A DNA stretch of 63,299 bases from a virus (lineage: Duplodnaviria > Caudoviricetes). Location of the stretch: positions 1-63,299 of the IMG/VR virus record IMGVR_UViG_3300009678_000063; one strand, 5' to 3'. Both the position numbers and the translations under genes were made by a program. Shown here in pieces: positions 8,378 through 59,783 of the stretch (within the stretch, counting starts at the first letter, position 1; every line of letters begins with the position of its first letter). Below the pieces are notes generated by a model. It searched no databases and was not told the DNA's origin. It saw nothing but the letters and a program-made list of their open reading frames with translations.

Positions 8378-9204
8378 GTCACCTGTACCGCGTTACCACC
8401 CCGGGCGACCCGGTGTACGTGCACGCCGCCACGACCGACGAGGCCCTCGACCTCGTGCCGACTGGCACGCTGGCCGTGGACTCCCTGCCGTGGCTGGCCG
8501 ACTGCCTCGTGTGCGGGACCGACGACCTCGAACCTGAGGACGGGGCACCGCTGACCCCGGCCGACCGGGAGCAGCACCCCGGCGGCAGCCCGCACCCGCG
8601 GACCGCTGAGGTCCGGGCGTGGACCCTCAGTTACAACGGCCGCAACGCGTTCGTGCTCAACGTGCAGCATGGGCTCGTCCACGGTCGGGGCAAGGTCAAG
8701 AACCCCCGACTGAGTTACAAGCAGGTCGAGGCCCTCGCCGTGGTCAAGGACCGCGAGGCAGCGTGGGCCGACGAGAAGGTCAAGGCCCGGATGGGCACCG
8801 GCATTGACCTGTACTCCGCCCTGCCCGACGGCACCACCCGGGCCGCGGCGCTCAACGAGGACGGCGGGCTCTCGTTCGTCCGCCTCGACAAGGTTACAAC
8901 GGGACGGTGGGCCGGGTGGGTGTTCGTCCGGGCCATCCTTGGCGCCGACGAGGACCGCCGACTCGGTGCGCACCGACCGGGCGAGGCCGACTACGCCGGG
9001 GCGTGGCCGACCGTCATTCGCAACGTGCTCGCCGACGTGCCCGCTGCCGTGGCGCGCTACGGCCTCGAACTCGGGGTCTGCGGGGTCTGTAACCGGGCAC
9101 TGACCAACGAGGAATCCCGGCAGCAGGGCATCGGGCCGGTCTGCCGTGCTCGACTTGACAAGGGTGAGACACTCTATCCAGACACCAACGAAGTAGGAGA
9201 CTGA
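8374..9204 (+). CDS. DUF6011-like zinc-finger domain protein
   Basis: C-terminal CGVCNRALTNEESRQQGIGPVC. Confidence 0.7.
   Translation: MSHLYRVTTPGDPVYVHAATTDEALDLVPTGTLAVDSLPWLADCLVCGTDDLEPEDGAPLTPADREQHPGGSPHPRTAEVRAWTLSYNGRNAFVLNVQHGLVHGRGKVKNPRLSYKQVEALAVVKDREAAWADEKVKARMGTGIDLYSALPDGTTRAAALNEDGGLSFVRLDKVTTGRWAGWVFVRAILGADEDRRLGAHRPGEADYAGAWPTVIRNVLADVPAAVARYGLELGVCGVCNRALTNEESRQQGIGPVCRARLDKGETLYPDTNEVGD
9155..9173 (+). promoter_or_regulatory. Short-spacer promoter-like element
   Basis: TTGACA-agggtga-GACACT upstream of RBS/ATG 9211. Confidence 0.6.
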
Positions 9205-9210
9205 CCAGAC

Positions 9211-9441
9211 ATGATGGGATACACCGCCCCCTCGAAGAAGGCCATCAAGGACGCCCTCAAGGGCATCGGCGACACCGGCCTGCTCAACTACTGGGCCCAC
9301 GTGCAGGAGACCTCGTTCTTCGGCCCGGAGTCCAGCGTTCCGGGCGAGAACACGGTGGTCGGCCCGGACGCGTACACCAAGCGCGTCTGGTACGGCACCC
9401 TGACCGTGGACGCGGCCGGGATTGTGACGGGCATCCGATGA
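9211..9441 (+). CDS. Conserved small phage protein
   Basis: AGGAG RBS; ETSFFGPE...VVGPDAY.KRVWY. Confidence 0.65.
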   Translation: MMGYTAPSKKAIKDALKGIGDTGLLNYWAHVQETSFFGPESSVPGENTVVGPDAYTKRVWYGTLTVDAAGIVTGIR

Positions 9442-9761
9442 TGCAGCCCGACGTCTTCCTTGGACGCCGACAGCGCACCGCCGCGGGCAACACCCGGTTC
9501 CGCGTGTTCTTCAACCGGACCCTGCCGGACGGTACCCTCGTGCACGGGCACGGCACCTTCATCGCCCGCCGCAACGAGGCCGGGTTCCGCGGCCGCCAGT
9601 GGGAAGTCGTGGGGGCCACCGATGACATCGCCCCCCGGTCACTGGGGTTCCACCGGGACGACCTGAGCACCCGGACTGAGGCGATTGAACTCGCCGTCGG
9701 TTTCATCAAGGAGCAGTTGCAAATCCGGACCCTCATCGAGCAAATGGAGGCCTCCAAGTGA
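9438..9761 (+). CDS. Hypothetical protein
   Basis: Coupled 107-aa ORF. Confidence 0.6.
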   Translation: MMQPDVFLGRRQRTAAGNTRFRVFFNRTLPDGTLVHGHGTFIARRNEAGFRGRQWEVVGATDDIAPRSLGFHRDDLSTRTEAIELAVGFIKEQLQIRTLIEQMEASK

Positions 9762-10676
9762 GTTCAAACAAGGTCTACGCCATCATCACTGAGCGCATCG
9801 TGGCCATGCTCGACGCGGGCACCGTGCCGTGGCGCAAGGGGTGGGCCGGTGGCGACCGCTTCCCGGTCAGCATCCACGGCCGCACCTACCGGGGCATCAA
9901 CATTGTGGTTGCTGGCCGCGGTGGCCGCATCCACGGGCTACCGGTCCCACGTCTGGCTCACCTACAAGCAGGCCGTGGCCCTAGGTGGGGTGGTCCGCAA
10001 GGGTGAGAAGGGCACGCCGGTCGTGTTCTGGAAGCAACTACAGGTCGAGGACCGGGACGAGGCGGGCCAGAAGAAGACCATCCCGTTCCTGCGGTACTTC
10101 ACCGTCTTCAACACGGAGCAGACTGAGGGCTGCACCTTCGACGCGGCGACCATCAAGCGCCTCGCCCCGCCGGACGTGCCGACCGGGTTCGACCCGGTAG
10201 TCGAGGCGGAGACCGTCTTCGAGGGCATGCCGTCCCGCCCGTCCGTCACCTTCGACGGTGGCAACCGGGCGTTCTACCGGCCGGACAGCGACACCGTGCA
10301 CCTGCCGCCCCGTGAGACCTTCCACGATGCGGCTGGATTCTACGAGACCCTGTTCCACGAACTCGGCCACGCCACCGGGCACGCGTCCCGGGTGGGGCGC
10401 AAGGTCGAGGGCAACCCCTTCGGCAGCCACGACTACGGCCGTGAGGAACTCGTGGCCGAAATGACCTCAGCGTTCGTGCTCGCCACTGTCGGGCTAGAGC
10501 AGGAGACCCTCGTCAACGCGGCCGCCTACATCGCCTCGTGGAAGCGGGCCATTGCGGCCGACGAGTCCATGGTGGTGTGGGCTGCCAGCCAAGCGCAGAA
10601 GGCGGCCGACTTCATCCTTGGAGTGGCGCTTGACACCCGTGAGACACTGGTAGCAGACCAGAAGGAGACCAGATGA
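9758..10676 (+). pseudogene. ardC: ArdC-family antirestriction/ssDNA-binding protein, frameshifted near 9900
   Basis: VY..IT.RIV..L..GTVPWRKGW...YRGIN in one frame; WLTYKQA..LGG.VRKGEKG, VFN.EQ, HELGHATGH, EELVAE in the next frame. Confidence 0.85.
10630..10648 (+). promoter_or_regulatory. Short-spacer promoter-like element
   Basis: TTGACA-cccgtga-GACACT followed by AGACCAGAAGGAGA leader. Confidence 0.6.
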
Positions 10677-11266
10677 TTCCGATTCAGCCACCGTTCAATC
10701 CGGCACCCGGCCGCGAGGACTTCGCACGCATCAGCCACATCGTCAACCCGGCCATCGAGTACGACATCCTCGGGGTCTACGCCGGACCCGGCGGCATGTT
10801 CCTCGTGGCTGAGGGTAACGGCGACTACGTGACTGGTCAGCCAGTGGGCGTGACCGGACGGGGAACCGTGCTCGCCTCGGTCAACGCCTACGAGACCCTC
10901 AACGAGGCCATCGGCTACGCCATGAAGGCCAGCGGGTCCGGCTGTGACTGCGGCAAGGGCGCCCTCTGCCCCGAAGTCAGCCTCGCGTCACCCGTCATCG
11001 GGGTGAGCACCGAGTTCACCCTTCTCGGCACCGACCCGGCGCCGGTAGCGGGGGGCGACGAACTCCGGACCCTCAGCCTCCGCCAATCGGAAATCGAGAC
11101 CATCAAGCAGGCCCTCGACTACGCCCGTGAGGACTTGGAGTCACGGGCCCGGTACGAGGACCGCCTGTCCCGCTCATGGTCTGAGGGGCCGGAACTCCGG
11201 GCCTCGGCAGACCGTTACGCCAAGGTATTGGCCCTGTTCACCGGGCCGGAAGGATACGACCAGTGA
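10673..11266 (+). CDS. Hypothetical protein
   Basis: AAGGAG RBS. Confidence 0.6.
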   Translation: MIPIQPPFNPAPGREDFARISHIVNPAIEYDILGVYAGPGGMFLVAEGNGDYVTGQPVGVTGRGTVLASVNAYETLNEAIGYAMKASGSGCDCGKGALCPEVSLASPVIGVSTEFTLLGTDPAPVAGGDELRTLSLRQSEIETIKQALDYAREDLESRARYEDRLSRSWSEGPELRASADRYAKVLALFTGPEGYDQ

Positions 11267-11670
11267 GCCAGCCCTTCGCCGTCGTCGAGACCAGCACCGG
11301 CCGCCACCTAGACGGCCTGCCGACCCCCTTGCTCATCCAGACCGGCAGCGGCGAGGCGTGGCAGGAGGACCGGGGCATCTGGCGGCTGCGTGATGACCGT
11401 CACGACCCGCGAGGCACGGAGTACACCCGGGTCCGGGTGGTGCGCCAGTACGAGTACATCGTTGACCTCACCGTTGAGGTCGTGGACCCGAGCGGCGACG
11501 CGCTCGACGAGTACTCCTCCGAGCCGGACCACCGGTCCATCCATGTCGAGGCGACCTCGCCCCGTGAGGCCGACGACCTCGCCCGGGGCCGGGCTGCCGA
11601 CGAGGCCCGGGAGTGGGCCGGGGATGTCCCGCTCATCATTACCATCATCCGAGTTGAGGAGCAGTCATGA
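11263..11670 (+). CDS. Hypothetical protein
   Basis: GTGA coupling. Confidence 0.6.
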   Translation: MSQPFAVVETSTGRHLDGLPTPLLIQTGSGEAWQEDRGIWRLRDDRHDPRGTEYTRVRVVRQYEYIVDLTVEVVDPSGDALDEYSSEPDHRSIHVEATSPREADDLARGRAADEAREWAGDVPLIITIIRVEEQS

Positions 11671-11900
11671 AGGTTTATCTCGTCAGCGTCCATTCAACCG
11701 GCTACTACTCCGACTACTACGACGATGTGCTCGTCGTGGCCGAGACCGCCATCCAAGCGCAAGGTCTGGCCGAGAGGGACATGGCCGACGACTTCCACCT
11801 GCGCTCCATCACCGGGTCAGCCGCGTTCGAACTGAGCCTCGGCAATGCCCGGGCAGTGGGCCGACTCGTGAACCCCGACGAGGAGTACAGCCGAGACTGA
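11667..11900 (+). CDS. Hypothetical protein
   Basis: GAGGAG RBS. Confidence 0.6.
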   Translation: MKVYLVSVHSTGYYSDYYDDVLVVAETAIQAQGLAERDMADDFHLRSITGSAAFELSLGNARAVGRLVNPDEEYSRD

Positions 11901-11907
11901 GCACGAC

Positions 11908-11926
11908 TTGACAAGCATGAGACAAT
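11908..11926 (+). promoter_or_regulatory. Short-spacer promoter-like element
   Basis: TTGACA-agcatga-GACAAT followed by CTAGACCAGAAGGAGA. Confidence 0.6.
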
Positions 11927-11952
11927 GGTTCCCTAGACCAGAAGGAGACACC

Positions 11953-12222
11953 GTGAAGACCAGACAGTACTTCCACTGGGTCCGCATCAAGACCGGCAAC
12001 CCGTTCAGCAGCGACATGGGTGGCTTCCTCGACATGCTGCGCTACGACTACGGGCAGGTCGTCGAGTGGACCCGGACCAATGACGGGACGTTCGACATTC
12101 AACTGATGGTCACCGACCGGTTCCCCACCCGGGACCGCTGGTCGTCCTTCGGAATCCAGACCACCCCGGTCTCCGACTTCCGGACGCGCTCCTTCGAGGA
12201 CGCGCAGGTGGGACTCCGATGA
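11953..12222 (+). CDS. Hypothetical protein
   Basis: AAGGAG RBS + GTG; DMLRYD motif. Confidence 0.6.
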   Translation: MKTRQYFHWVRIKTGNPFSSDMGGFLDMLRYDYGQVVEWTRTNDGTFDIQLMVTDRFPTRDRWSSFGIQTTPVSDFRTRSFEDAQVGLR

Positions 12223-12419
12223 CGGTTCGCGAACTGGCGGACATGCTCCTCGCCTACCGGGGTGACATCGAGGTCGTGCTGACCTGCGAGCGCGACGCGT
12301 ACACCTTCCACCCGCTGCTCTTCACGCCCTCACTGGGGCGTGGTGAGCGGGACGGCAGGCTCGTGCTTCGACTCAACCCCGGTACCGACTACGAGACCAT
12401 CCAGACGGAGAACGACTGA
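12219..12419 (+). CDS. Hypothetical protein
   Basis: MTVREL... coupled ORF. Confidence 0.55.
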   Translation: MTVRELADMLLAYRGDIEVVLTCERDAYTFHPLLFTPSLGRGERDGRLVLRLNPGTDYETIQTEND

Positions 12420-12715
12420 TGCCTGCTAACCCCCTCGCCAACTTCCGACAGACCGTCACCATCGAACTGGCCGTGGACGTGACCGGCCGCCGCAACGACT
12501 TCGACATGCCGACCCGTGACCTGCGCTTCGCCATCGAGGAATGGGTCAAGGACTCCCTGCCCTACTTTCTGACCGGCGCACGGGTGACCGCTAATCGCGG
12601 GCCGTCCGGCGCCCGGTGGGACGAGGGCGACCAGCGCCCGAGCCCGCTGGCCGGGGGACTGACGAGTCACGTCAAGACGGTCATGGCCTTCCTGCCGGAA
12701 GAGGACGCGTCGTGA
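12419..12715 (+). CDS. Hypothetical protein
   Basis: TGATG coupling. Confidence 0.55.
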   Translation: MPANPLANFRQTVTIELAVDVTGRRNDFDMPTRDLRFAIEEWVKDSLPYFLTGARVTANRGPSGARWDEGDQRPSPLAGGLTSHVKTVMAFLPEEDAS

Positions 12716-12861
12716 AGGCCACCCTGTACGCTGCCGTCCTGTTCACCGGCATTGCGCTCGGCCACCTGCTGTTCGCCCCACCGCACTGCCCTCAGGAAGA
12801 CTCCTGCTACCCCGACTACCAGAACGGGGCGTGGACCATCATTCAGGGAGAACGACCATGA
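12712..12861 (+). CDS. Small membrane protein
   Basis: Hydrophobic N-terminus, CPQEDSC motif. Confidence 0.5.
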   Translation: MKATLYAAVLFTGIALGHLLFAPPHCPQEDSCYPDYQNGAWTIIQGERP

Positions 12862-13190
12862 AGACCGACTTCGGTTCCGCACTCGACGCCGTCATCCGCG
12901 ACGGGCTCGACGAGGCCTCGCGTCTCGGCTACGACCGAGCCCTCGCCCGGGTACGCTCGGCCCTGCACGGGCGACACGATGCCGCCCTGCTCTACGGTAG
13001 CCCGGCTCGGGCGGGAGCCTTCGCCACGGTTCTCGGAGACATCGAGATGATTGCGTCCCTGTCCCTGCGCTCCAACGTGCAGCAGCAGTGCTGCCTCAAC
13101 GCCGAGAGTGCAGGCCACACCGAGGACTGCCCGCTGTTCACCGGGTCGGTGCGCCCCGGTCACCGGGCAGACCGAGAGGGGCTCGACTGA
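12858..13190 (+). CDS. Hypothetical protein
   Basis: GGAG RBS, ATGA coupling. Confidence 0.55.
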   Translation: MKTDFGSALDAVIRDGLDEASRLGYDRALARVRSALHGRHDAALLYGSPARAGAFATVLGDIEMIASLSLRSNVQQQCCLNAESAGHTEDCPLFTGSVRPGHRADREGLD

Positions 13191-13194
13191 CCGC

Positions 13195-13213
13195 TTGACA
13201 CGGCTGGTACACT
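13195..13213 (+). promoter_or_regulatory. Short-spacer promoter-like element
   Basis: TTGACA-cggctgg-TACACT followed by CTAGACCAGAAGGAGA. Confidence 0.65.
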
Positions 13214-13241
13214 GATTACCTAGACCAGAAGGAGAGACCAG

Positions 13242-13529
13242 ATGGGTTCAATGCAAGCAATGGCCATGGCCGACGAGGTCGAGGCCGGGGGCACCAGCCT
13301 CCGGGCCGCCCTGACGTGGCACCTTCGCAGCAACCACTACCCGCCTCACCCCCTGTTCATGGTGGGCGTGGCACTGCGGGCCGTCCGCAAGGTCGAGGCC
13401 GGGGAGATTGACGCCCGGGTCCGCCTGCCCAAGGGCGCGAGTCACCGCCGGTTCGGCAGCCTCGTGCCAGCGTGGGCCATCGTGGACGACCTGCACCTTG
13501 ACGCGTTCATCAGCGAGGGGGCAGAGTGA
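13242..13529 (+). CDS. Conserved phage hypothetical protein
   Basis: WHLRSNHYPP...HLDAF. Confidence 0.65.
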   Translation: MGSMQAMAMADEVEAGGTSLRAALTWHLRSNHYPPHPLFMVGVALRAVRKVEAGEIDARVRLPKGASHRRFGSLVPAWAIVDDLHLDAFISEGAE

Positions 13530-13867
13530 GCGAGCACGTCAAGGTCATCGAGACCGCACGACACCGCAACGGCAGCGGGGGCGCCCCGTTCTACGTGTCC
13601 CTCGTCCAGTGGGGTGCCGAAGAGGTCGGCGACGACCTGTTCGTGGCCATCAGTTTCCCTCCGGATGACCCGTACGGGACGCCGGACGAGCAGCGTGAGT
13701 ACCTGCGTGAGCACACGGCCGTCCTCAATGTCCGCCTGCTTGGCGAGCGGAACATCGGGTTCGCCATGGGCAACTCGTGGCGAGGGGCCGACCACGTGGG
13801 GCCATCCGTTGTCGAGACAATCGCCGCGGCCCACGAGTACGAGTTCAATCAGGAGGACCCGGAATGA
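13526..13867 (+). CDS. Conserved phage hypothetical protein
   Basis: HRNG..G.PFYV...NSWRGAD. Confidence 0.65.
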   Translation: MSEHVKVIETARHRNGSGGAPFYVSLVQWGAEEVGDDLFVAISFPPDDPYGTPDEQREYLREHTAVLNVRLLGERNIGFAMGNSWRGADHVGPSVVETIAAAHEYEFNQEDPE

Positions 13868-14040
13868 CTGTCAAGGAACTACTTGCCCTGCTCGACGCGT
13901 CCATCAAACTCGGGCACCTGTCCCTCGGGGCCGACGTCCTCGTGTCGGACAACCACGGTGCGGCCGGGGTTGAGTGGGCCTCGCCGACCAGCCCATTCAC
14001 CTTCACCATCGTCCGGGTCACCCCGGGAAAGGAGTCCTAG
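13864..14040 (+). CDS. Hypothetical protein
   Basis: AGGAGG RBS; MTVKEL. Confidence 0.55.
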   Translation: MTVKELLALLDASIKLGHLSLGADVLVSDNHGAAGVEWASPTSPFTFTIVRVTPGKES

Positions 14041-14041
14041 A

Positions 14042-14272
14042 TTGTTCACCAACAAGGACAGCATCGCCACGGCCCTGTCACGGCTGGCCGATGCCGCAGT
14101 GGCAGCGCAACGGGCCCTTGCCGCCGACCAGTACCTCGACAGTGGCGTTCGGTACGTCACGTCCAGTGACGGCACCACGGTCTACCGCATTCAGCGCCAG
14201 TGGACCTGCGCCTGCCCCGGCTGGAAGTTCCGCGGGGAATGCCGCCACCTGCGGGAGGCGGGCGTCTCGTGA
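14042..14272 (+). CDS. SWIM zinc-finger protein
   Basis: CACPGWKFRGECRH. Confidence 0.7.
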   Translation: MFTNKDSIATALSRLADAAVAAQRALAADQYLDSGVRYVTSSDGTTVYRIQRQWTCACPGWKFRGECRHLREAGVS

Positions 14273-14475
14273 GACTAGGTAACTTCATCGAGCGCTTGGG
14301 TCGCATGAAGACCCTAACCGAGCACAACCCCGACGTACCCATCGTGGTTGAAACGTGGGTTGAGGGAGTTGGGTTTGTCAGTACGCCCGTCGAGGGTGTA
14401 TACTTCCAAGTGCAGCCCCGACGCATCATCATCGAGACTGGAACAACGATTAGGGAGGACGCCCCCCGTGATTGA
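14269..14475 (+). CDS. Hypothetical protein
   Basis: GTGA coupling. Confidence 0.5.
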   Translation: MRLGNFIERLGRMKTLTEHNPDVPIVVETWVEGVGFVSTPVEGVYFQVQPRRIIIETGTTIREDAPRD

Positions 14476-14638
14476 ACTCAATACCCTCATGCCGGGTCAT
14501 GAGTCCCACCTAAAGGTGGAGGACTACGACTTCGCCGATGGGTCCGTCGTCGTGACCTGCTCGTGCGGCGAGACGTTCGAGTTCGAGAACATTGACCCCG
14601 AGCCCGATGACGATGGCGACGGGGCGGGCGAGTGGTAG
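14468..14638 (+). CDS. Small acidic protein
   Basis: GGAGG RBS; H...CSCG. Confidence 0.5.
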   Translation: MIELNTLMPGHESHLKVEDYDFADGSVVVTCSCGETFEFENIDPEPDDDGDGAGEW

Positions 14639-15090: not shown

Positions 15091-15097
15091 GCACGAC

Positions 15098-15116
15098 TTG
15101 ACAGGGGTGGTACACT
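15098..15116 (+). promoter_or_regulatory. Short-spacer promoter-like element
   Basis: TTGACA-ggggtgg-TACACT. Confidence 0.65.
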
Positions 15117-15306
15117 GGTTAGGTACCAATGATCCCCGTACGGGCGGTGTGGAACGCCTCGCGGTCCCGGCACCGGACCTCTGGCCCTGAGGCCAAGTCA
15201 CCCTCTAGCGCGGAGGACAGGGAGCGTTTATAGACGGCTGATAGCGTCACGAGGAGGCGACCAGCGCCGGATAACCGTCACCGGCAACTAGATAGAAGGA
15301 GGACTC

Positions 15307-15909: not shown

Positions 15910-15920
15910 GGGAGTAGAGC

Positions 15921-16097: not shown

Positions 16098-16098
16098 C

Positions 16099-16117
16099 TT
16101 GACATCGGTGGTACACT
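16099..16117 (+). promoter_or_regulatory. Short-spacer promoter-like element
   Basis: TTGACA-tcggtgg-TACACT. Confidence 0.65.
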
Positions 16118-16146
16118 GGTACCACTAGCATCGGAGGACAGGGGAC

Positions 16147-16327: not shown

Positions 16328-16540
16328 ATGTCGGGCCTGCCGGGCCCACAAGGGCTGCCGCCCTGCCTGTTCTGCGGTGAGTGGGACCAGTTCCTCATCT
16401 CGCCGGCACGGTACGGCGTCAACTGGTTCTACTCCGTGGACTTCTTGACACATCAGGTACGCTGTATGAACTGCGGCGTGAAACTGACGGCCTACCGCCG
16501 GGCCAACAAGAACAACTGGACATGGTTCGAGGACGTATGA
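16328..16540 (+). CDS. Small zinc-finger protein
   Basis: CLFCG...CMNCG. Confidence 0.5.
16445..16463 (+). promoter_or_regulatory. Short-spacer promoter-like element upstream of the recombinase
   Basis: TTGACA-catcagg-TACGCT. Confidence 0.45.
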
Positions 16541-23987: not shown

Positions 23988-24387
23988 GGCGCAGCGCCGG
24001 CTAGACCGGGCCAAGGCCTCCGAGCGGAGGCTGGCCCGCTGGTTGGTGGAGCACGACGGACCTGACCCGTCAATGATGCCGGGCGCCGGCGTTGCTACTC
24101 CCACCGGTAGGGTGGGTCACCTGTTCCGGTACGACGTACCGAGCCTGCACTACCGTGCGGAGAACAAGCACATCAAGATAGGGTCCCTCTGGCGGGTATG
24201 GAAGCAGGTAGCGGACATCGCCAAGTTGGCGGACAAGCACCCGCTCGTCCGCATTGAGCCGACGAACCCTGACGCCCGTCAGTACCCGAAACTCCACATC
24301 ATCAGCGAGCAGCGGCATCAGGAACTCCTAGCCGCGGAGCAGTGGATGTTGTCGTACCGTCCCAAGGATGGTATACTTGATGACTGA
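23962..24387 (+). CDS. Holliday-junction-resolvase-like PD-(D/E)XK nuclease
   Basis: K..ERRLA...D...AENK...W.Q. Confidence 0.5.
   Translation: MPRILVRSEAQRRLDRAKASERRLARWLVEHDGPDPSMMPGAGVATPTGRVGHLFRYDVPSLHYRAENKHIKIGSLWRVWKQVADIAKLADKHPLVRIEPTNPDARQYPKLHIISEQRHQELLAAEQWMLSYRPKDGILDD
24349..24377 (+). promoter_or_regulatory. Canonical sigma70-type promoter for the SSB operon
   Basis: TTGTCG-N17-TATACT with extended TG. Confidence 0.55.
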
Positions 24388-25346: not shown

Positions 25347-26249
25347 GTGTACACCTTTGCGGAAGCGGTTGAGTCGATTGTGGGGTCCCGTCCGGCTGGA
25401 CGTGGCAAGAACGTAATGGTTCGTTGCCCGGTCCACGAGGACCGGGACCCCTCGTTGTCTGTCAACCTCGACAACGGGCTCTGGATTTGCTTCGGTTGCG
25501 GAGCGAAGGGCAACATCATCGGGCTGGCTGAGCGGTTCGGCGTTACCCTCGACGACGACGCCATTGCCCTGTCGAGGGCCCGGTCCTTGGACCTCCCCGA
25601 GCCGTCAGTGGACTTCGCCGACAGGGGCAAGGAACTGGCCGCCAGCCTGTTCCTCCATCGCCCGCAGGTAATCGTGGACTACATCAACGGCCGGTCACTG
25701 TCACCGCTCACTGTTCGTCACTTCTCGATGGGGTACGACCACGGCAAGAACGCCGTCGCGATGCCCTACTGGGACGGCGACGTTGTAACCGGCATCAAGT
25801 ACCGGACCGGGGACGGGAAGAAGTTTAGCGAGCCCGGTAGCCACTACGGCATCTACAACGTGGACAACGTTCGCCAGAAGCCCATCGTGGTCCTCTGCGA
25901 GGGCGAGTCCGACACTCACGCGGCGTGGTCCGCCTTGACATCCATGGGGATTAGTGGTACAATCGTTAGAGAGGTTGGGGTAGGTGGCCTATCAGGCGCC
26001 TCAATCTCCCCGGAGCGATGGGAAGTCCTATCAGTGGACCTCCTGTGGGCCAAGAAGGTCATTGTCATCTTCGACAATGACGAGGCCGGCCACCGTGGCG
26101 CCAGCATCGCCGTTCAGGCGATTGGACAGCGCGCCACCACCCTCACTCCCACTCGTGGAACCGACCTGTCCGACCATCTGATGTCGGGCGGCACCCTCAA
26201 GGAGATTGGATTGCTCGATGAACTCGCCAAGTACCCTGTCGCTGAGTGA
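25347..26249 (+). CDS. DNA primase (CHC2 zinc finger + TOPRIM)
   Basis: CPVHEDRDPS...CFGCG; CEGESD; FDNDEAG. Confidence 0.9.
   Translation: MYTFAEAVESIVGSRPAGRGKNVMVRCPVHEDRDPSLSVNLDNGLWICFGCGAKGNIIGLAERFGVTLDDDAIALSRARSLDLPEPSVDFADRGKELAASLFLHRPQVIVDYINGRSLSPLTVRHFSMGYDHGKNAVAMPYWDGDVVTGIKYRTGDGKKFSEPGSHYGIYNVDNVRQKPIVVLCEGESDTHAAWSALTSMGISGTIVREVGVGGLSGASISPERWEVLSVDLLWAKKVIVIFDNDEAGHRGASIAVQAIGQRATTLTPTRGTDLSDHLMSGGTLKEIGLLDELAKYPVAE
25935..25963 (+). promoter_or_regulatory. Consensus sigma70 promoter inside the primase gene
   Basis: TTGACA-N17-TACAAT with extended TG. Confidence 0.6.
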
Positions 26250-55436: not shown

Positions 55437-55437
55437 A

Positions 55438-55513
55438 TGGCTGCGTCTCAAGGGATCGAACCTTGGAATCTGCTGGTTCAAGGCCAGCCGCCTTACCGCT
55501 TGGCTAAGACGCA
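55438..55513 (-). tRNA. tRNA-Gln(UUG), C33
   Basis: Cloverleaf, loop CC-TTG-AA, CCA. Confidence 0.85.
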
Positions 55514-55514
55514 T

Positions 55515-55589
55515 TGGCGAGTCATCTCAGGCTCGAACTGAGAACCGGAAGGGTAAGAACCTTCTGCACCACCGTTGTGCTAATGACCC
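55515..55589 (-). tRNA. tRNA-Lys(CUU)
   Basis: Cloverleaf, TT-CTT-AC, CCA. Confidence 0.85.
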
Positions 55590-55590
55590 A

Positions 55591-55665
55591 TGGCTGCGAT
55601 GGCAGGACTCGAACCTGCAACAAGACGGGTAACAACCGCCGGCTCTGCCGTTGAACTACACCGCA
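55591..55665 (-). tRNA. tRNA-Asn(GUU)
   Basis: Cloverleaf, CCA. Confidence 0.9.
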
Positions 55666-55666
55666 A

Positions 55667-55740
55667 TGGACAGCGTGACGAGACTCGAACTCGCATACGT
55701 GGGGGTAAAAGCCCCGTGGCAACCGTTTGCCCACACGCCG
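55667..55740 (-). tRNA. tRNA-Lys(UUU)
   Basis: CT-TTT-AC, CCA. Confidence 0.8.
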
Positions 55741-55741
55741 A

Positions 55742-55816
55742 TGGAAGCGGAGAAAGGAATCGAACCTTCGACTTGGCGCGTATGAAGCGCCTGTTCTGCC
55801 ACTGAACTACTCAGCC
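55742..55816 (-). tRNA. tRNA-Met(CAU), elongator (Ile2 not excluded)
   Basis: TT-CAT-AC, CCA. Confidence 0.8.
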
Positions 55817-55818
55817 AT

Positions 55819-55896
55819 TGGTAGACGTATTAGGAGTTGAACCTACTCTTGTTCGGGATATAAGCCCGACGGCCACTACCGGCGACCACTACGTCC
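55819..55896 (-). tRNA. tRNA-Ile(UAU)
   Basis: CT-TAT-AT, A73, CCA. Confidence 0.8.
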
Positions 55897-55897
55897 A

Positions 55898-55973
55898 TGG
55901 TGCTATCCAAGGGACTCGAACCCCCGACGCGCAGTGCTTCAAACTGCCGTTCTACCTACTGAACTAAGATAGC
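55898..55973 (-). tRNA. tRNA-Phe(GAA)
   Basis: Cloverleaf, CCA. Confidence 0.9.
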
Positions 55974-55974
55974 G

Positions 55975-56238
55975 TGTAAGGCGTGTAGGAGAGTTACGCC
56001 GTCGCTTCCGCTTTCCGGAACGACCCAACCTGCCGGACAGGTCCCCTCCACCATCGCTAGGGAGTCCGAGTTTCTACACCTAGCGTACAGGCTTGTAAGT
56101 ACGCGACTGCCCACACTTACCGCCACCAGCCCCGCGAAGGGCGGGTGGTCCCTCTTCCCCGCGGGACAAGCCCTCGGTTTACAGACGGTCCACCATCAAG
56201 GCCGAGCAATCTCAGCGCTGCTTGGCAGTCGCGAATCA
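55975..56238 (-). ncRNA. Unassigned structured RNA(s), two closed domains
   Basis: CGCGACTGCC/GGCAGTCGCG and GTGTAG/CTACAC closing stems between tRNAs. Confidence 0.55.
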
Positions 56239-56239
56239 T

Positions 56240-56313
56240 TGGAGCACCTGCTAGGAATCAAACCTAGACCTCCACCCTTACAAGGGGCGTGTCCTGTCTT
56301 AGACGACAGGTGC
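56240..56313 (-). tRNA. tRNA-Thr(UGU)
   Basis: Cloverleaf, CCA. Confidence 0.85.
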
Positions 56314-56314
56314 A

Positions 56315-56391
56315 TGGCGGGGACCACGAGACTCGAACTCGCTGCCTCCGGCTTGACAAGCCGGTATCAATACCACTTAGACCTCATCCCC
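56315..56391 (-). tRNA. tRNA-Asp(GUC)
   Basis: Cloverleaf, CCA. Confidence 0.88.
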
Positions 56392-56392
56392 G

Positions 56393-56471
56393 TGGTGAAT
56401 GTTGTTGGACTCGAACCAACGGCCTTCTCCTTATCAGAGAGATGCACGCATACCAACCGTGCTCAACATCC
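56393..56471 (-). tRNA. tRNA-Ile(GAU)
   Basis: Cloverleaf, CCA. Confidence 0.88.
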
Positions 56472-56472
56472 T

Positions 56473-56548
56473 TGGAGCAGTAAACGAGACTCGAACTCGC
56501 GACCTCCTCCTTGGCAAGGAGGAACACTTCCAACTGTGCTTCTACTGC
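56473..56548 (-). tRNA. tRNA-Gly(GCC)
   Basis: Cloverleaf, CCA. Confidence 0.9.
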
Positions 56549-56549
56549 G

Positions 56550-56636
56550 TGGTACTCATGGTGGGAGTCGAACCCACAATCCCGCTAGGGCGCTTGCTTC
56601 TAAGGCAAGTCCGTATACCAGTTCCGGCACACGAGC
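56550..56636 (-). tRNA. tRNA-Leu(UAG)
   Basis: Long variable arm, CCA. Confidence 0.9.
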
Positions 56637-56638
56637 AT

Positions 56639-56716
56639 TGGTGCAATCCCCCGGACTCGAACCGGGACATAACTAGGTTCTCGACCTAGTCCCTCTACCA
56701 TTTGGGGTAGGACAGC
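56639..56716 (-). tRNA. tRNA-Leu(GAG), short variable loop, C33
   Basis: TC-GAG-AA, A73, CCA. Confidence 0.8.
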
Positions 56717-56718
56717 GT

Positions 56719-56794
56719 TGGCAGCGACCGCGGGACTTGGACCCGCTAGGACCGCCTTGAAAGGACGGCCGCTCGACCCTTTGCATTGGTCGCC
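56719..56794 (-). tRNA. tRNA-Glu(UUC), divergent T-loop
   Basis: CT-TTC-AA, T-loop TCCAAGT, CCA. Confidence 0.75.
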
Positions 56795-56795
56795 T

Positions 56796-56871
56796 TGGCT
56801 GGAACGGTAGGGCTCGAACCTACGATTACCGGGTTCAGAGCCCGGAGCCTTGCCAACTTGGCCACATTCCA
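56796..56871 (-). tRNA. tRNA-Gln(CUG)
   Basis: Cloverleaf, CCA. Confidence 0.92.
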
Positions 56872-56879
56872 ATGTGTAA

Positions 56880-56980
56880 TGGCGGGCTCGGCAACCGCAC
56901 TATCCCGGGCCCTCGCGCTAGCAGCATCCCCGGTTTCATGAGGCCGGTTTCCCCGTCGAGAAACATAGACCTCCGCTTCA
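56880..56980 (-). ncRNA. Unassigned CCA-ended structured RNA
   Basis: GCGG/CCGC terminal pairing + CCA, internal hairpins, no T-loop. Confidence 0.45.
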
Positions 56981-56984
56981 TTGA

Positions 56985-57317
56985 GCAGATAGGCTATAAG
57001 CCCCGTCCTGTGGACCTTGGTTCAAGCGCCTTGCGGCTCCCAACTGAACGACTGCCATCCACCTTGCTGTTCGATTGCTCGAACAATCCTTGCGTGCTTC
57101 TCCACCCCACCGAGCCTCGTCATAGGGCACTCGCACTTGCAACGCCTAGAGTTTACCCGTTTCACCCGAGCACTACCTCGGTTCGTCACTGTTGCACTAG
57201 TCCTACCCTCGCGGGCGCCGGCCGTTAGCCGGTAGGCTGGCTCTGGTTGCGGGGACTTTCCTCACTCACCGCGGGACAAGTCACCGAACGGATATGCGCG
57301 ACAGTCCACCTATCTAC
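56985..57317 (-). ncRNA. rnpB: RNase P RNA (reduced bacterial type A-like)
   Basis: GAGGAAAGTCCCC, AGTGCAACAG, GGGTGAAACGGGTAAAC, GGATGGCAGTC, ACAGGACGGGGCTTA; P1, P4, P5, P6 and P18 pair. Confidence 0.93.
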
Positions 57318-57323
57318 TGCTAC

Positions 57324-57343
57324 AGTATAGCACACCCTGTCAA
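57324..57343 (-). promoter_or_regulatory. Short-spacer promoter of rnpB
   Basis: TTGACA-gggtgtgc-TATACT ending 6 nt before P1. Confidence 0.7.
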
Positions 57344-57357
57344 GGACTGCAAACTGG

Positions 57358-57435
57358 TGGTCAACCTCGCGAGACTCGAACTCGCACGTGCTCCGGGTTT
57401 GAGCCGGAGGCCTCTGCCATTTGGGCTACAGGTTG
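57358..57435 (-). tRNA. tRNA-Leu(CAA), short variable loop
   Basis: CT-CAA-AC, A73, CCA. Confidence 0.82.
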
Positions 57436-57436
57436 G

Positions 57437-57512
57437 TGGTACCCGATGACGGACTCGAACCGCCGACACCTAGTATGTAACACTAGTGTTCTGGCCGCTG
57501 AACTAAACGGGC
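57437..57512 (-). tRNA. tRNA-Val(UAC)
   Basis: GT-TAC-AT, CCA. Confidence 0.88.
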
Positions 57513-57513
57513 T

Positions 57514-57589
57514 TGGTGCATCCTGCTGGACTCGAACCAGCGACCCCCACCATGTCAAGGTGGTGCGCTAACCGCTGCGCTAAGGAAGC
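57514..57589 (-). tRNA. tRNA-Val(GAC)
   Basis: Cloverleaf, CCA. Confidence 0.92.
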
Positions 57590-57590
57590 G

Positions 57591-57665
57591 TGGGGTGGAA
57601 CCAGAGAGTCGAACTCTGCTATCCGGGCTCACAACCCGGTGCCTCGCCACAAGGCTTGTAACACC
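57591..57665 (-). tRNA. tRNA-His(GUG)
   Basis: G-1/C73, CCA. Confidence 0.85.
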
Positions 57666-57667
57666 AT

Positions 57668-57743
57668 TGGCCCCAACGGTCAGACTCGAACTGACGGCCT
57701 AGTGTTTAGGAAACACTCGCGCTGTCCACTGCGCTACATCGGG
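57668..57743 (-). tRNA. tRNA-Arg(CCU)
   Basis: Cloverleaf, CCA. Confidence 0.9.
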
Positions 57744-57744
57744 A

Positions 57745-57819
57745 TGGCACCCTCGACTGGACTCGAACCAGTATCGTGCGGCTTAGAAGACCGTTGTTCA
57801 TCCGTTGAACTACGAAGGT
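57745..57819 (-). tRNA. tRNA-Arg(UCU)
   Basis: Cloverleaf, CCA. Confidence 0.9.
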
Positions 57820-57820
57820 A

Positions 57821-57877
57821 TGAATCGGCAGACGGAGTCGAACCGTCCGTGTCGCGAACACTCCCCAGTAACCGACC
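57821..57877 (-). ncRNA. 57-nt mini tRNA-like RNA
   Basis: Acceptor-like stem + perfect T-arm GACGG-TTCGACT-CCGTC, no D-stem, stunted anticodon arm. Confidence 0.6.
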
Positions 57878-57878
57878 A

Positions 57879-57952
57879 TGGAGACCACTACCGGACTCGA
57901 ACCGGTGTCCGCGGGTTTGCAAGCCGCTCCCTTGCCTCTCGGGCAAATGGTC
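57879..57952 (-). tRNA. tRNA-Cys(GCA)
   Basis: U73, CCA. Confidence 0.88.
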
Positions 57953-57953
57953 A

Positions 57954-58037
57954 TGTTGCAAGTGTGGTGGACCGCGGGTTCCACCCCCGGCCGCTCAGCG
58001 CGTGGAAAACGCAGACGGTAATGCCCACACACTCGCA
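57954..58037 (-). ncRNA. 84-nt three-way-junction RNA with complementary loops
   Basis: TGCGAGTGTG/CACACTTGCA stem; loops TTCCAC and GTGGAA. Confidence 0.55.
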
Positions 58038-58113
58038 TGGAGCGTCATACAGGATTTGAACCCGCGCGTTCTGCTTGGAAGGCAGACATGCTACCATTGA
58101 ACATCAATGACGC
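58038..58113 (-). tRNA. tRNA-Gly(UCC)
   Basis: Cloverleaf, CCA. Confidence 0.9.
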
Positions 58114-58114
58114 T

Positions 58115-58190
58115 TGGCACCGATGACAGGACTCGAACCCGCATGCTCCCTGCTTCGAAGGCAGGAGTTCATCCATTGAACTACATCGGT
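58115..58190 (-). tRNA. tRNA-Arg(UCG)
   Basis: Cloverleaf, CCA. Confidence 0.88.
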
Positions 58191-58191
58191 A

Positions 58192-58268
58192 TGGCTCGCC
58201 TCGTGAGACTCGAACTCACGGCCTCAGCCTTCGCAGGGCTGCGCTCTATCCACTGATGCTAGAGGCGA
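58192..58268 (-). tRNA. tRNA-Arg(GCG)
   Basis: CT-GCG-AA; D-stem TAGC-a-TCAG; CCA. Confidence 0.88.
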
Positions 58269-58269
58269 A

Positions 58270-58346
58270 TGGTGACGCCTACGGGGCTCGAACCCGTAAT
58301 CTCCTGACTGAGAATCAGGGGCCTTGACCGATTTGGCTAAGGCGCC
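58270..58346 (-). tRNA. tRNA-Glu(CUC)
   Basis: Cloverleaf, CCA. Confidence 0.9.
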
Positions 58347-58347
58347 A

Positions 58348-58423
58348 TGGAGCCGAAGGAGGGACTCGAACCCTCGACCTCATCCTTACCAAGGATGTGC
58401 ACTGCCGACTGTGCTACTTAGGC
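58348..58423 (-). tRNA. tRNA-Thr(GGU)
   Basis: Cloverleaf, CCA. Confidence 0.92.
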
Positions 58424-58424
58424 G

Positions 58425-58499
58425 TGGAGCCAACCCTCGGACTCGAACCGAGAACCTACTGCTTACGAAGCAGTTGCGCTGCCATTGCGCTAGGAAGGC
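58425..58499 (-). tRNA. tRNA-Thr(CGU)
   Basis: Cloverleaf, CCA. Confidence 0.9.
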
Positions 58500-58501
58500 G
58501 T

Positions 58502-58587
58502 TGGTGTTGCCAGTGAGAGTCGAACTCACTCACCCCGTAGGGGCCAGTTTTACAGACTGGCTTGGGAACCGTCCCGCTGTCGTCAAC
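58502..58587 (-). tRNA. tRNA-Tyr(GUA)
   Basis: Long variable arm, CCA. Confidence 0.85.
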
Positions 58588-58588
58588 A

Positions 58589-58664
58589 TGGTGGAGATAC
58601 AGGGAATCGAACCCTGACTTTCTGCTTGCAAGGCAGTTGTGCAGCCCACTATCACTACACCCCC
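58589..58664 (-). tRNA. tRNA-Ala(UGC)
   Basis: G3:U70, CCA. Confidence 0.9.
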
Positions 58665-58665
58665 A

Positions 58666-58741
58666 TGGTCAGACTGGAAGGACTCGAACCTTCGACTTCC
58701 CACTCCCGAAGCGGGCACGCTACCTACTGCGCTACAATCTG
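58666..58741 (-). tRNA. tRNA-Pro(CGG)
   Basis: Cloverleaf, CCA. Confidence 0.92.
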
Positions 58742-58742
58742 A

Positions 58743-58818
58743 TGGTCAGAAAGACAGGCCTCGAACCTGCGACCTCCGCACCCCCAGTGCGGGACTCTAC
58801 CAACTGAGTTACTTTCTG
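58743..58818 (-). tRNA. tRNA-Pro(GGG)
   Basis: Cloverleaf, CCA. Confidence 0.92.
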
Positions 58819-58819
58819 A

Positions 58820-58895
58820 TGGTCAGAGCAGTGAGACTCGAACTCACGACCTCCCGATCCCAAATCGGGTGGACTACCTACTGTCCTACACTCTG
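58820..58895 (-). tRNA. tRNA-Pro(UGG)
   Basis: Cloverleaf, CCA. Confidence 0.92.
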
Positions 58896-58896
58896 A

Positions 58897-58981
58897 TGGC
58901 GGATGCTAGAGGACTCGAACCCCTACGGGTGTAACCCCATCACGGCTTTCAAGGCCGATAAGTGCTCCTATACGAGCATCC
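58897..58981 (-). tRNA. tRNA-Ser(UGA)
   Basis: Long variable arm, reduced D-arm, G73, CCA. Confidence 0.82.
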
Positions 58982-58982
58982 A

Positions 58983-59067
58983 TGGCGGATAGTAAGGGAC
59001 TCGAACCCCTACACCTGTAACGGCCTCACCGCTTTCGAGGCGGAGTAGCACACCAATGCGACTATCC
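58983..59067 (-). tRNA. tRNA-Ser(CGA)
   Basis: Long variable arm, reduced D-arm, CCA. Confidence 0.82.
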
Positions 59068-59068
59068 A

Positions 59069-59153
59069 TGGCGGAAGGTACAGGACTCGAACCTGTACGA
59101 CTTTGAGGTCATCACCGCTTTCCAAGCGACTTAGTACGCCAATACGACCTTCC
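59069..59153 (-). tRNA. tRNA-Ser(GGA)
   Basis: Long variable arm, reduced D-arm, CCA. Confidence 0.82.
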
Positions 59154-59154
59154 G

Positions 59155-59239
59155 TGGCGGAAGCGACAGGACTCGAACCTGTACGGGTGTTACCCCATCA
59201 CCCCTTAGCAGGGGGCTTACTGCGCCAGTAGGCGCTTCC
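59155..59239 (-). tRNA. tRNA-Ser(GCU)
   Basis: Long variable arm, reduced D-arm, CCA. Confidence 0.82.
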
Positions 59240-59240
59240 G

Positions 59241-59418
59241 TGGAGCGGTAGGCCGTCTCTGACCACGCCTATCCGCCTAGTCCCCCGCGCGCTATAGTCA
59301 GAATCGACCGGGGACACTCCGCCACCCGAAGACGGCGGAGGGGCAGGGACTCGGCCTGAGGCACACCCCGGGCACAACGCCCTGCGCGCGTACTCGGGAA
59401 ACCAAAGGCCAATCATTA
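59241..59418 (-). ncRNA. Unassigned ~178-nt CCA-ended structured RNA
   Basis: CGCGCGC/GCGCGCG and CCGGGG/CCCCGG stems, cUUCGg hairpin, terminal hairpin + TCCA. Confidence 0.5.
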
Positions 59419-59419
59419 T

Positions 59420-59496
59420 TGGGTGCGCCAGCGGGACTCGAACCACGCTTCTCCGGGTTATGAGCCCAGTGAGGAAACCTTTCCTCCCATAGCACA
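59420..59496 (-). tRNA. Initiator-type tRNA-fMet(CAU)
   Basis: GGG-CT-CAT-AA-CCC anticodon arm, CCA. Confidence 0.82.
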
Positions 59497-59569
59497 TGGC
59501 AGGCCCGGCGAGACTCGAACTCGCGGCTAAGCGTTTTGGAGACGCCCGCAGCACCGTTGCCTCGAACCT
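59497..59569 (-). tRNA. tRNA-Trp(CCA)
   Basis: CT-CCA-AA, G73, CCA. Confidence 0.85.
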
Positions 59570-59574
59570 GTAGT

Positions 59575-59672
59575 TAGCACCGGCCCACACATCCATCCGG
59601 ACCGAGGAGCGACCCCAATCGTGATGGAAACCTACCGCCGTTCGGGTTGCGAACCCACCCTGACCGGTGCTG
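59575..59672 (-). ncRNA. Unassigned structured RNA at the head of the array
   Basis: AGCACCGG/CCGGTGCT closing stem with internal hairpins. Confidence 0.45.
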
Positions 59673-59763
59673 TAATACCGCTTACCGAATGCGGTGCTCT
59701 TCGACGGGATACATTTCATAGGCCCCAGTTGGCCAACCGGTTATCTCTCAGAGCGGAGCCGCT

Positions 59764-59783
59764 AGTGTACCACACGATGTCAA
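59764..59783 (-). promoter_or_regulatory. Short-spacer promoter of the tRNA array
   Basis: TTGACA-tcgtgtgg-TACACT. Confidence 0.65.

Follow-up and report, generated by a model that had tools for sequence, protein, structure and literature searches.

The window analyzed here is the whole 63,299-nucleotide stretch of IMG/VR record IMGVR_UViG_3300009678_000063, a single contig that represents a complete 63.3-kb siphophage genome. It carries 9 elements in which a perfect TTGACA, the -35 word of sigma-70/sigma-A promoters, is located only 7 or 8 bp from a -10-like hexamer of the form (T/G)AYRMT. The common denominator of this class, which we designate the short class, is a promoter-proximal TTGACA at about -24 beside an extended -10, with an optional distal -35. 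Judged from the sequence, the reading that we tentatively rank first is that these elements are genuine hybrid extended -10 promoters, the proximal TTGACA of which may have an adaptor or a relocated sigma region 4 as its reader.

Nine TTGACA elements at 7 or 8 bp from the -10 hexamer

The pattern TTGACA-N7/8-KAYRMT matched the window exactly 9 times, 7 times on the plus strand and twice on the minus strand; the mean of dinucleotide-preserving shuffles was 0.09, and none of 100 shuffles reached 9. These are the same 9 elements that a preliminary description of this DNA had listed, and its further statements that 8 of them carry a TG and that all point toward downstream genes also held. TG at -15/-14, which beside a good -10 makes an extended -10, is present in 8 of the 9 sites, the exception being the site at 16445. 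All 9 sites face a downstream start or RNA, with 16445, which lacks a credible start codon, being the doubtful case. When the spacer was scanned from 3 to 23 bp, a length of 7 bp gave 7 matches and one of 8 bp gave 2, and no other length gave more than 1. G is found at -12 in 3 of the 9 sites. In the alignment of the sites on the hexamer, the information was concentrated in C-TTGACA, the TG, and the hexamer, and the 4–5 nt between them and the flanks were variable; the 9 sites thus did not arise by recent copying of a single cassette.

The first plus-strand site (TTGACA-AGGGTGA-GACACT, 9155..9173) has a predicted +1 at approximately 9180 and is followed by a Shine-Dalgarno sequence (SD) and an ATG at 9211. 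The second (TTGACA-CCCGTGA-GACACT, 10630..10648) lies in the last codons of an ArdC-like gene, with a predicted +1 at approximately 10655 and an ATG at 10673. These are followed by TTGACA-AGCATGA-GACAAT at 11908..11926 (predicted +1 approximately 11933, GTG 11953), TTGACA-CGGCTGG-TACACT at 13195..13213 (predicted +1 approximately 13220, ATG 13242), and, beyond the site at 15098, TTGACA-TCGGTGG-TACACT at 16099..16117 (predicted +1 approximately 16124, ATG 16147). At these 5 sites (starts at 9211, 10673, 11953, 13242, and 16147), the SD and start codon lie 18–32 nt past the predicted +1. The site TTGACA-GGGGTGG-TACACT (15098..15116) is separated by a 184-nt leader from the GTG of a zinc-ribbon gene at 15307. 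The last plus-strand match (TTGACA-CATCAGG-TACGCT, 16445..16463) is a doubtful member, without the TG and inside overlapping open reading frames (ORFs). The 2 minus-strand sites precede the RNase P RNA gene rnpB and the tRNA array and are described below. Fold z-scores of the long leaders (+1.11 after 15098 and -0.29 after 59783) gave no support for a structured RNA.

Compared with the canonical sigma-70/sigma-A layout, in which the -35 hexamer lies 16–18 bp from the -10, TTGACA was found at 7–8 bp in all 9 sites. The -10 hexamer occupies -12 to -7 at rnpB, and elsewhere the spacing to the SD and start codon suggests the same placement. In the 7 plus-strand sites, the best match to TTGACA at 16–18 bp is 1–3 of 6 letters. 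Since random positions reach at most 2 of 6 in 61% of cases and 3 of 6 in 30%, these matches equal the background, and there is thus no distal -35 at these 7 sites. A standard -35/-10 scan of 5000–18000 recognized none of the 9 sites, and direct inspection of the sequences revealed no TAnnnT-like -10 at 16–19 bp 3' of their TTGACA. The remaining 26 TTGACA copies in the genome have no extended motif in common, hence none of them forms a stand-alone operator- or stoperator-like site.

The spacing is preserved in an independent strain. X2 is a public DNA run from a different study and year, the Logan contigs of which were compared with window positions 9000–17000; the second public DNA run with this region, X1, may have given rise to the window itself. 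This region lies within a single 16.5-kb contig of X2 and is approximately 97% identical, differing by 207 substitutions and 20 gap letters. Of the gap letters, 14 belong to the 12 listed indels, each 1–3 nt long, and none of these 12 falls between TTGACA and the hexamer; 6 further indels share the 6 remaining gap letters and are therefore 1 nt each. X2 has an extra A just behind 13213. Across the 7 plus-strand sites, X2 has no indel of more than 3 nt; therefore, the spacing is no assembly artefact. Collapse of a hairpin in the assembly is likewise excluded, as perfect-palindrome spacers (4316–4345) survive in the genome and X2 has no indel above this length.

Two weaker look-alikes stand outside the class, each with 1 hexamer mismatch: TTGACT-N7-GACATT with a TG at 28444–28462 (plus strand), just within gene 28401–28787, and CTGACA-N8-TACCGT at 55171 (minus strand). 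The word TGTGGTACACT is the extended -10 of the Bacillus subtilis xpt-pbuX promoter in the construct sequence given in PMC3664795.

Register and dual layout at the RNase P RNA and tRNA promoters

The bacterial class A RNase P RNA (56981–57317, minus strand; Rfam, 140.5 bits) is embedded between tRNA-Leu(CAA) and tRNA-Gln(CTG). The first paired base of its helix P1, where the Rfam alignment begins (57317), provides a register for the promoter in front of it. With +1 at 57317, TATACT (57329–57324) occupies -12 to -7, separated from the RNA start by 6 bases, and TTGACA (57343–57338) occupies -26 to -21, in agreement with the preliminary description. Five IMG/VR relatives (L003, L004, L005, L008, and L009), the portal proteins of which are 62–66% identical to that of the window, have the same tRNA array and RNase P RNA. 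Their arrays comprise 28–35 tRNA genes compared with the near-complete set of 36 in the window, and rnpB lies in the array in all 5. The promoter before rnpB is TTGACA-17-TACACT in L003, L004, and L005, TTGACA-18-TACACT in L009, and TTGACA-17-TATACT in L008, and the distance from the hexamer end to the RNase P RNA start is 7 nt in L003 and 6 nt in L008. This near-equal distance makes the -10 assignment at rnpB secure and implies that TTGACA there is no normal -35. The view that the (T/G)AYRMT hexamer is a true -10 at rnpB, in the window as in its relatives, can thus be regarded as secure on sequence grounds.

According to Hook-Barnard and Hinton (PMC2613000), the spacer is set by the beta-flap, which holds sigma region 4, and sigma fragments with regions 2–4 lose recognition upon a one-base change of the spacer. 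By the spacer rules given there, TTGACA at the short sites would therefore be beyond the reach of sigma region 4 in the standard holoenzyme.

The 2 minus-strand promoters have a dual layout. The rnpB promoter reads TTGCAG-tcc-TTGACA-GGGTGTGC-TATACT (57324..57352; short element 57324–57343), in which the -10 lies 17 bp from the distal and 8 bp from the proximal hexamer. The tRNA-array promoter reads TTGCAG-gat-TTGACA-TCGTGTGG-TACACT (59764..59792; short element 59764–59783), with the same layout, 187 nt before tRNA-Trp. In both, TTGCAG is located 3 nt 5' of TTGACA and 17 bp from the -10. TTGCAG matches TTGACA in 3 of 6 letters, and at rnpB an overlapping TTTGCA at 18 bp matches in 4 of 6. TTGCAG likewise serves as the -35 of the canonical promoter at 5074–5103 and of one tRNA promoter found in L003 and L004. 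In the window, a gap of 40 nt separates tRNA-Leu(CAA) from the RNase P RNA; the corresponding gaps in L005, L003, and L008 are 42, 44, and 55 nt. The unchanged gap length and the distal TTGCAG together indicate that nothing was deleted at the 2 minus-strand promoters; TTGACA is an extra hexamer within a spacer of normal length. The earlier suggestion of a spacer shortened by one helical turn therefore does not fit the rnpB and tRNA promoters, and we likewise dropped the idea that rnpB had lost 9–10 bp of a hairpin spacer. A weaker form of the dual layout, TTGACT-gcc-TAGACA-N8-TACGCT, is found in a 51-kb relative, G001.

Canonical promoters exist in the same genome. Those previously noted at 24349 and 25935 are present, TTGTCG-17-TATACT with a TG at 24349..24377 (plus strand), which serves as a contrast site, and TTGACA-17-TACAAT with a TG at 25935..25963 (plus strand), inside the primase gene. 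Two more are located on the minus strand: TTGCAG-18-TACACT with a TG at 5074..5103, leftward out of the divergent control region, and TTGGAG-18-TATACT with a TG at 4316..4345, with the palindromic spacer GGAGGAC-tga-GTCCTCC. All 9 short sites have a perfect hexamer, compared with 1 of these 4 TG-extended canonical promoters (TTGGAG, TTGCAG, TTGTCG, and TTGACA). A canonical-type site without a TG, TTGACA-16-GATGAT, is found at 5738.

Several features of the canonical sites were observed in passing. Palindromic spacers of unrelated sequence appear frequent in the canonical promoters of this phage group, an impression from examples, without statistics: GGAGGAC-tga-GTCCTCC, CCGTCC-caa-GGATGG, CCACGG-tcat-CCGTGG, and CAGGTG-gttcag-CACCTG, at loci 4316–4345 and 24349–24377 of the window, 1585–1613 of L003, and 5176–5204 of L008. 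TTGACA-17 also occurs within or beside primase homologues of 3 relatives at no common aligned position, inside the gene in G001 (45571, minus strand) and L158 (7418) and approximately 2.6 kb upstream in L151 (5970). The canonical promoter that precedes the homologue of window gene 24460 in relatives has a conserved inverted repeat, CCACCCG ... CGGGTGG, spanning the -10 and the start (L153 11555–11620, L149 14030–14095, L151 6590–6660, and L159 3715–3785); the window promoter at 24349 is without it. The 5738 site has GGTAC flanks and is followed by 4 close GGTACA/GTACA copies (5731–5800). The word GGTAC(A) is also the core of the TGGTACACT -10 regions, and GGTACA is mildly enriched in the window, with 38 copies compared with 24.8 expected and 3 of 100 shuffles reaching 38.

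Relatives, spread of the motif, and genomic setting

A DnaB profile search recovered 28 metagenome loci, among which L153 has a short-class site. L153 is collinear with the window, and its DnaB and integrase are 62% and 55% identical to those of the window. At L153 568–587, TTGACA-GCCCGTGC-TACAAT, with an 8-bp spacer and a TG, precedes an SD and an ATG. The protein encoded from this ATG has a C-terminus homologous to the product of window gene 15307–15507 (43% over 51 residues, E = 3e-10), the gene served by site 15098; the L153 site is thus the positional counterpart of 15098. Because it precedes the homologue of gene 15307, the short layout has been kept at the corresponding position across deep divergence. 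Of the other relatives, the collinear L149 carries TTGCAC-17-TACAAT as a canonical early promoter; G001 is collinear with window positions 21.2–63.3 kb and 5.8–7.1 kb, and the early region is exactly where its contig breaks.

The motif is not widespread. Searches of viral contigs with the ArdC-like protein, DnaB, and an integrase alignment yielded no relatives of the early region, and blastn of one 61-nt promoter cassette returned only noise (E >= 2). A scan of viral contigs for TTGACA-N4-TGGTACACT matched at least 119 stretches; among the 119 matches listed, 102 were in loci with a guanine-cytosine (GC) content below 50%, and 4 were followed by an SD and an ORF. The occurrence of this pattern in viral contigs is about the chance level. 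A stricter SD-linked pattern was found at 4 loci in viral contigs, with one site per contig. One of the 119 listed matches, which are mostly chance matches, lies in an unrelated viral contig of IMG/VR (L107, approximately 289–319) and reads TTGACA-N5-TTGACA-N7-TACACT, with the distal hexamer at 18 bp and the proximal at 7 bp, followed by an SD and an ATG.

The window has a GC content of approximately 61%, and its positions 1–16 equal positions 63284–63299, a terminal identity that fits a circular assembly opened at an arbitrary point. Scans against PHROG and Pfam revealed a minus-strand structural module of the siphovirus type (large terminase, portal, major head, tape measure, and tail proteins), a plus-strand block with a tyrosine integrase, a PD-(D/E)XK nuclease, a DnaB-type helicase, a primase, MazG, and a dNMP kinase, a B12-type ribonucleotide reductase, and numerous small ORFs without any family match. 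ARAGORN located the 36 tRNA genes at 55438–59569 on the minus strand. On the basis of the GC content at third codon positions, the real genes from 5822 to approximately 29500 are all on the plus strand. This strand pattern implies 2 arms diverging from a 665-bp control region (5157–5822). At 5160–5270, the control region is AT-rich and contains repeats of TACTAGTA and TTCTACT. Iterons resembling TTGTAACG are numerous in the control region and run on into the DUF7178 gene (5822–6799; regions 5160–5810 and 6064–6945), and this iteron-rich region could represent either a regulator array or an origin of replication together with its initiator.

The ArdC-like antirestriction gene (ArdcN plus a zincin peptidase, 9758–10676) is split into 2 overlapping frames (9758–10006 and 9849–10676). 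X2 is one base shorter at 9903, by which the 2 frames would fuse; the window thus has either a frameshifted copy or a sequencing error. In a phage collection, megablast with window positions 9000–17000 gave no match, the tRNA region gave only 37-nt matches to Listeria phages, and the terminase was at most 29% identical to anything. With regard to the host, a portal-alignment scan of genome contigs gave no match, and a DnaB-alignment scan gave a single 487-bp contig in an Anabaena metagenome-assembled genome (MAG). The Atlas taxa for the ribonucleotide reductase were mixed and indicated no host; the name of a Gemmatimonadales MAG on one DnaB homologue offers a mere hint.

Possible readers of the proximal TTGACA and comparison with known systems

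In the reading that we prefer, TGn plus (T/G)AYRMT would be an ordinary sigma-A extended -10 that docks sigma regions 2 and 3 of the host holoenzyme, with the start approximately 7 nt 3' of the hexamer, as indicated by the RNA 5' end at rnpB and suggested by the SD and start-codon spacing elsewhere. TTGACA at -26/-25 to -21/-20 would be a separate, selected promoter-proximal element, since sigma region 4 at its normal beta-flap position is unable to reach -26 to -21. The adaptor could take 2 forms: (i) a small phage protein, for which gp39 is a precedent, could move the module formed by the flap and sigma-4 closer to sigma-2, with sigma-4 itself then reading the hexamer; or (ii) a phage or host helix-turn-helix (HTH) protein could be wedged between the DNA and sigma-4, as in PafBC, SARP, and MotA/AsiA. 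The operons of small early genes would then form one co-regulated class with the tRNA and rnpB operons, apart from the canonical 17/18-bp promoters. We infer both the identity of the reader and the sign of its effect. The canonical-type promoter at 5738, ahead of 3.4 kb of genes (5822–9204) that lie 5' of the first short site, could conjecturally supply the factor in a cascade. The rigid 7/8-bp register and the always-perfect hexamer favor co-recognition in one complex over mere occupancy. Of the preliminary proposal, the part that stands is that of a non-standard reader, a reasonable inference for a TTGACA out of the reach of sigma-4; its 2 variants, an unusual polymerase geometry and a -35-recognizing regulator, are not decidable from sequence.

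Rather unlikely is the stronger claim that TTGACA is read directly by sigma-A region 4, at a distance from the -10 that is one helical turn less than in any known promoter. In this case, the flap tip and sigma-4 would swing inward, either spontaneously on a perfect hexamer with an extended -10 or by means of a gp39-like phage protein.

Several points weigh against the hybrid-promoter reading. The class is nearly private to the window phage, the other relatives having only canonical promoters in the parts examined. A TGn/-10 promoter may need no upstream element according to PMC2613000, so TTGACA might not act positively; and if the early genes need a phage factor, an earlier unit must supply it. 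Scans of 71 plus 28 ORFs (PHROGs) and 52 plus 7 ORFs (Pfam) found no sigma factor, HTH family, or homologue of gp39, AsiA, MotA, PafBC, or SARP. An Atlas search of the early ORF 7752–8162 gave no usable match, and its structural model had a predicted local distance difference test score (pLDDT) of 0.55. The public runs that contain positions 9000–17000 are 2 DNA runs, with no RNA run listed. The same ORF scans revealed no RNA polymerase or WYL protein, and no small early ORF had a family match to a gp39-like flap-binding protein, a kind of protein that diverges fast.

Phage repressors offer a precedent for an operator with this word. The mycobacteriophage L5 repressor binds an asymmetric 13-bp site containing TTGACA, and cluster A mycobacteriophages have stoperators, many stand-alone asymmetric operator copies away from promoters. 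An unlikely alternative, although one of some weight, is that TTGACA, alone or with the TG, is an asymmetric phage-repressor site at -27 to -15 that blocks RNA polymerase, with joint silencing of the early, tRNA, and rnpB units in the lysogen. The phage has a tyrosine integrase, and the element is uniformly oriented to transcription over functionally unrelated units. A major-groove binder at -23 should clash with the polymerase, as can be deduced from the geometry described in PMC3950348. However, the ORF scans detected no repressor-like or HTH gene, and the other 26 TTGACA copies, sharing no extended motif, provide no stand-alone sites. Nor would simple occlusion call for a rigid 7/8-bp register, and the conserved block consists of two parts around a variable middle.

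Sigma-4 of the unmodified holoenzyme might instead dock non-productively on the proximal hexamer, in competition with the extended -10, until the phage disables sigma-4. The hexamer is a perfect sigma-4 target without a usable -10 at 16–19 bp 3' of it, and extended -10 promoters resist sigma-4 inhibitors of the AsiA/gp39 type as described in PMC2613000 and PMC3950348. Such a decoy is nevertheless improbable: no anti-sigma-4 gene was identified in the ORF scans, and there is no clear reason for the phage to self-inhibit its tRNA and rnpB units, which are driven by strong canonical promoters in relatives.

We give an equally low rating to the possibility that the sites are plain extended -10 promoters and TTGACA is a functionless -35 left over and brought close by spacer deletions. 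TGn/-10 promoters can work without a -35, as stated in PMC2613000, the relatives have canonical versions, and the often-palindromic canonical spacers of the phage group could favor deletions. A relic would not be expected to be perfect in 9 of 9 sites compared with 1 of 4 TG-extended canonical promoters, or to be fixed at 7/8 bp. At rnpB, the gap (40 nt compared with 42–44 nt) and the distal TTGCAG exclude a deletion, and L153 has kept the short form at approximately 45–60% protein identity.

Very improbable is a different enzyme, with the whole block of approximately 20 bp being read by a sigma-like factor of the phage or by a non-canonical RNA polymerase that has a compact footprint. In size, the block roughly matches the recognition site of a single protein, and many early ORFs belong to no known family, but both of its halves are exact sigma-A consensus words, its -10 register equals that of the canonical promoters in relatives, and no polymerase or sigma signature was found, the only family-less ORF of sufficient size being a tail-region protein. 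That the sites are a repeated signal other than a promoter, for example for recombination or packaging, is barely credible; the public runs containing 9000–17000 include no RNA run, but the rnpB site is placed with single-base accuracy, 5 sites are followed at 18–32 nt by an SD and start codon, and the TG and -10 consensus are present.

Recognition by the sigma-70 family is thought to be fixed at a 16–18-bp spacing by the hold of the beta-flap on sigma region 4. In the known exceptions (PafBC, SARP, and MotA), a different word replaces the -35 and is read by an adaptor. What is new here is the -35 word itself at approximately -24, 9 times, alongside normal promoters in one genome, and no description of a -35 word at -26 to -21 as a promoter class was found in open-access papers and preprints. 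If a relocated sigma-4 does read the word, this would be a new, compact, and categorically novel geometry for the housekeeping holoenzyme, in which the "inhibitor" mechanism of gp39 is turned into a positive specificity switch, and the motif would provide a sequence signature for finding sigma-4-relocating phage proteins. If the reader is a new adaptor, sigma adaptation would be extended to phages. The elements may also be of use as very compact promoter parts of approximately 20 bp.

Among the known promoter types, sigma-54 (-24/-12) promoters have an invariant GG at -24 and GC at -12, and both marks are absent from the aligned sites. T4 middle promoters, which depend on "sigma appropriation," have a MotA box centred at approximately -30, 11–13 bp from the -10, and are used with AsiA. 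They resemble the short class in having a -10 and an upstream box closer than a -35, which in T4 is read through a remodelled sigma-4, and differ from it in word and spacing. Plain TGn/-10 promoters share the TG, present in 8 of the 9 sites, and the TAnnnT-type hexamer, and differ in having no conserved element at -26 to -21.

The Thermus phage P23-45 protein gp39 rotates the flap tip together with sigma-4, a shift of approximately 45 Å (PMC3950348, PMC4124052). It "decreases the distance between sigma2 and sigma4," and sigma-4 would then clash with DNA at -19 to -26 (PMC3950348); extended -10 promoters remain active under gp39 (PMC3950348, PMC4124052). The likeness lies in the use of the host sigma-A polymerase by a phage on extended -10 promoters and in the position of the gp39-shifted sigma-4 near -19 to -26, where TTGACA sits. 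By contrast, gp39 is described in these sources as abolishing the use of the -35, without a contact of sigma-4 to a proximal element; a -35-like word at -26 to -21 is what the short class adds to the P23-45 gp39 system.

At SARP promoters of Streptomyces, the activator site replaces or overlaps the -35, and the 3' repeat lies 8 bp from the -10 (PMC10936776). SARP contacts sigma region 4, the flap tip, and the beta' zinc-binding domain (PMC10936776), and its sites are 11-bp direct repeats with an 11- or 22-bp periodicity. The distance from element to hexamer in the phage, 7 bp at 7 sites and 8 bp at 2, is close to the 8 bp reported for SARP. The phage sites differ in having a single conserved hexamer without a conserved upstream copy; at 2 sites, TTGCAG stands 9 bp upstream (start to start). 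No SARP/OmpR-type protein was found in the phage.

PafBC promoters of mycobacteria have a -26 element and a canonical -10 but no -35, an arrangement termed "sigma adaptation" (PMC8635444). PafBC contacts -23 to -28, and the consensus is tGTCgg-N10-tAnnnT with an invariant GTC (PMC8635444). As described there, these promoters resemble the short class in combining a canonical TAnnnT -10 with one short upstream element at approximately -24/-26, with sigma-A as the presumed enzyme in both, and in having no -35, which is also the case at 7 of the 9 phage sites. The word and the distance differ, tGTCgg at 10 bp compared with TTGACA at 7–8 bp. GTCGG-N10-TAnnnT has 2 matches in the window (4825, plus strand, and 38847, minus strand), none at the 9 sites, and the phage ORFs scanned gave no Pfam or PHROG match to a PafB/PafC (HTH-WYL) activator. 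Judged by these comparisons, the short class is a member of neither the PafBC nor the SARP family, but probably works most like them.

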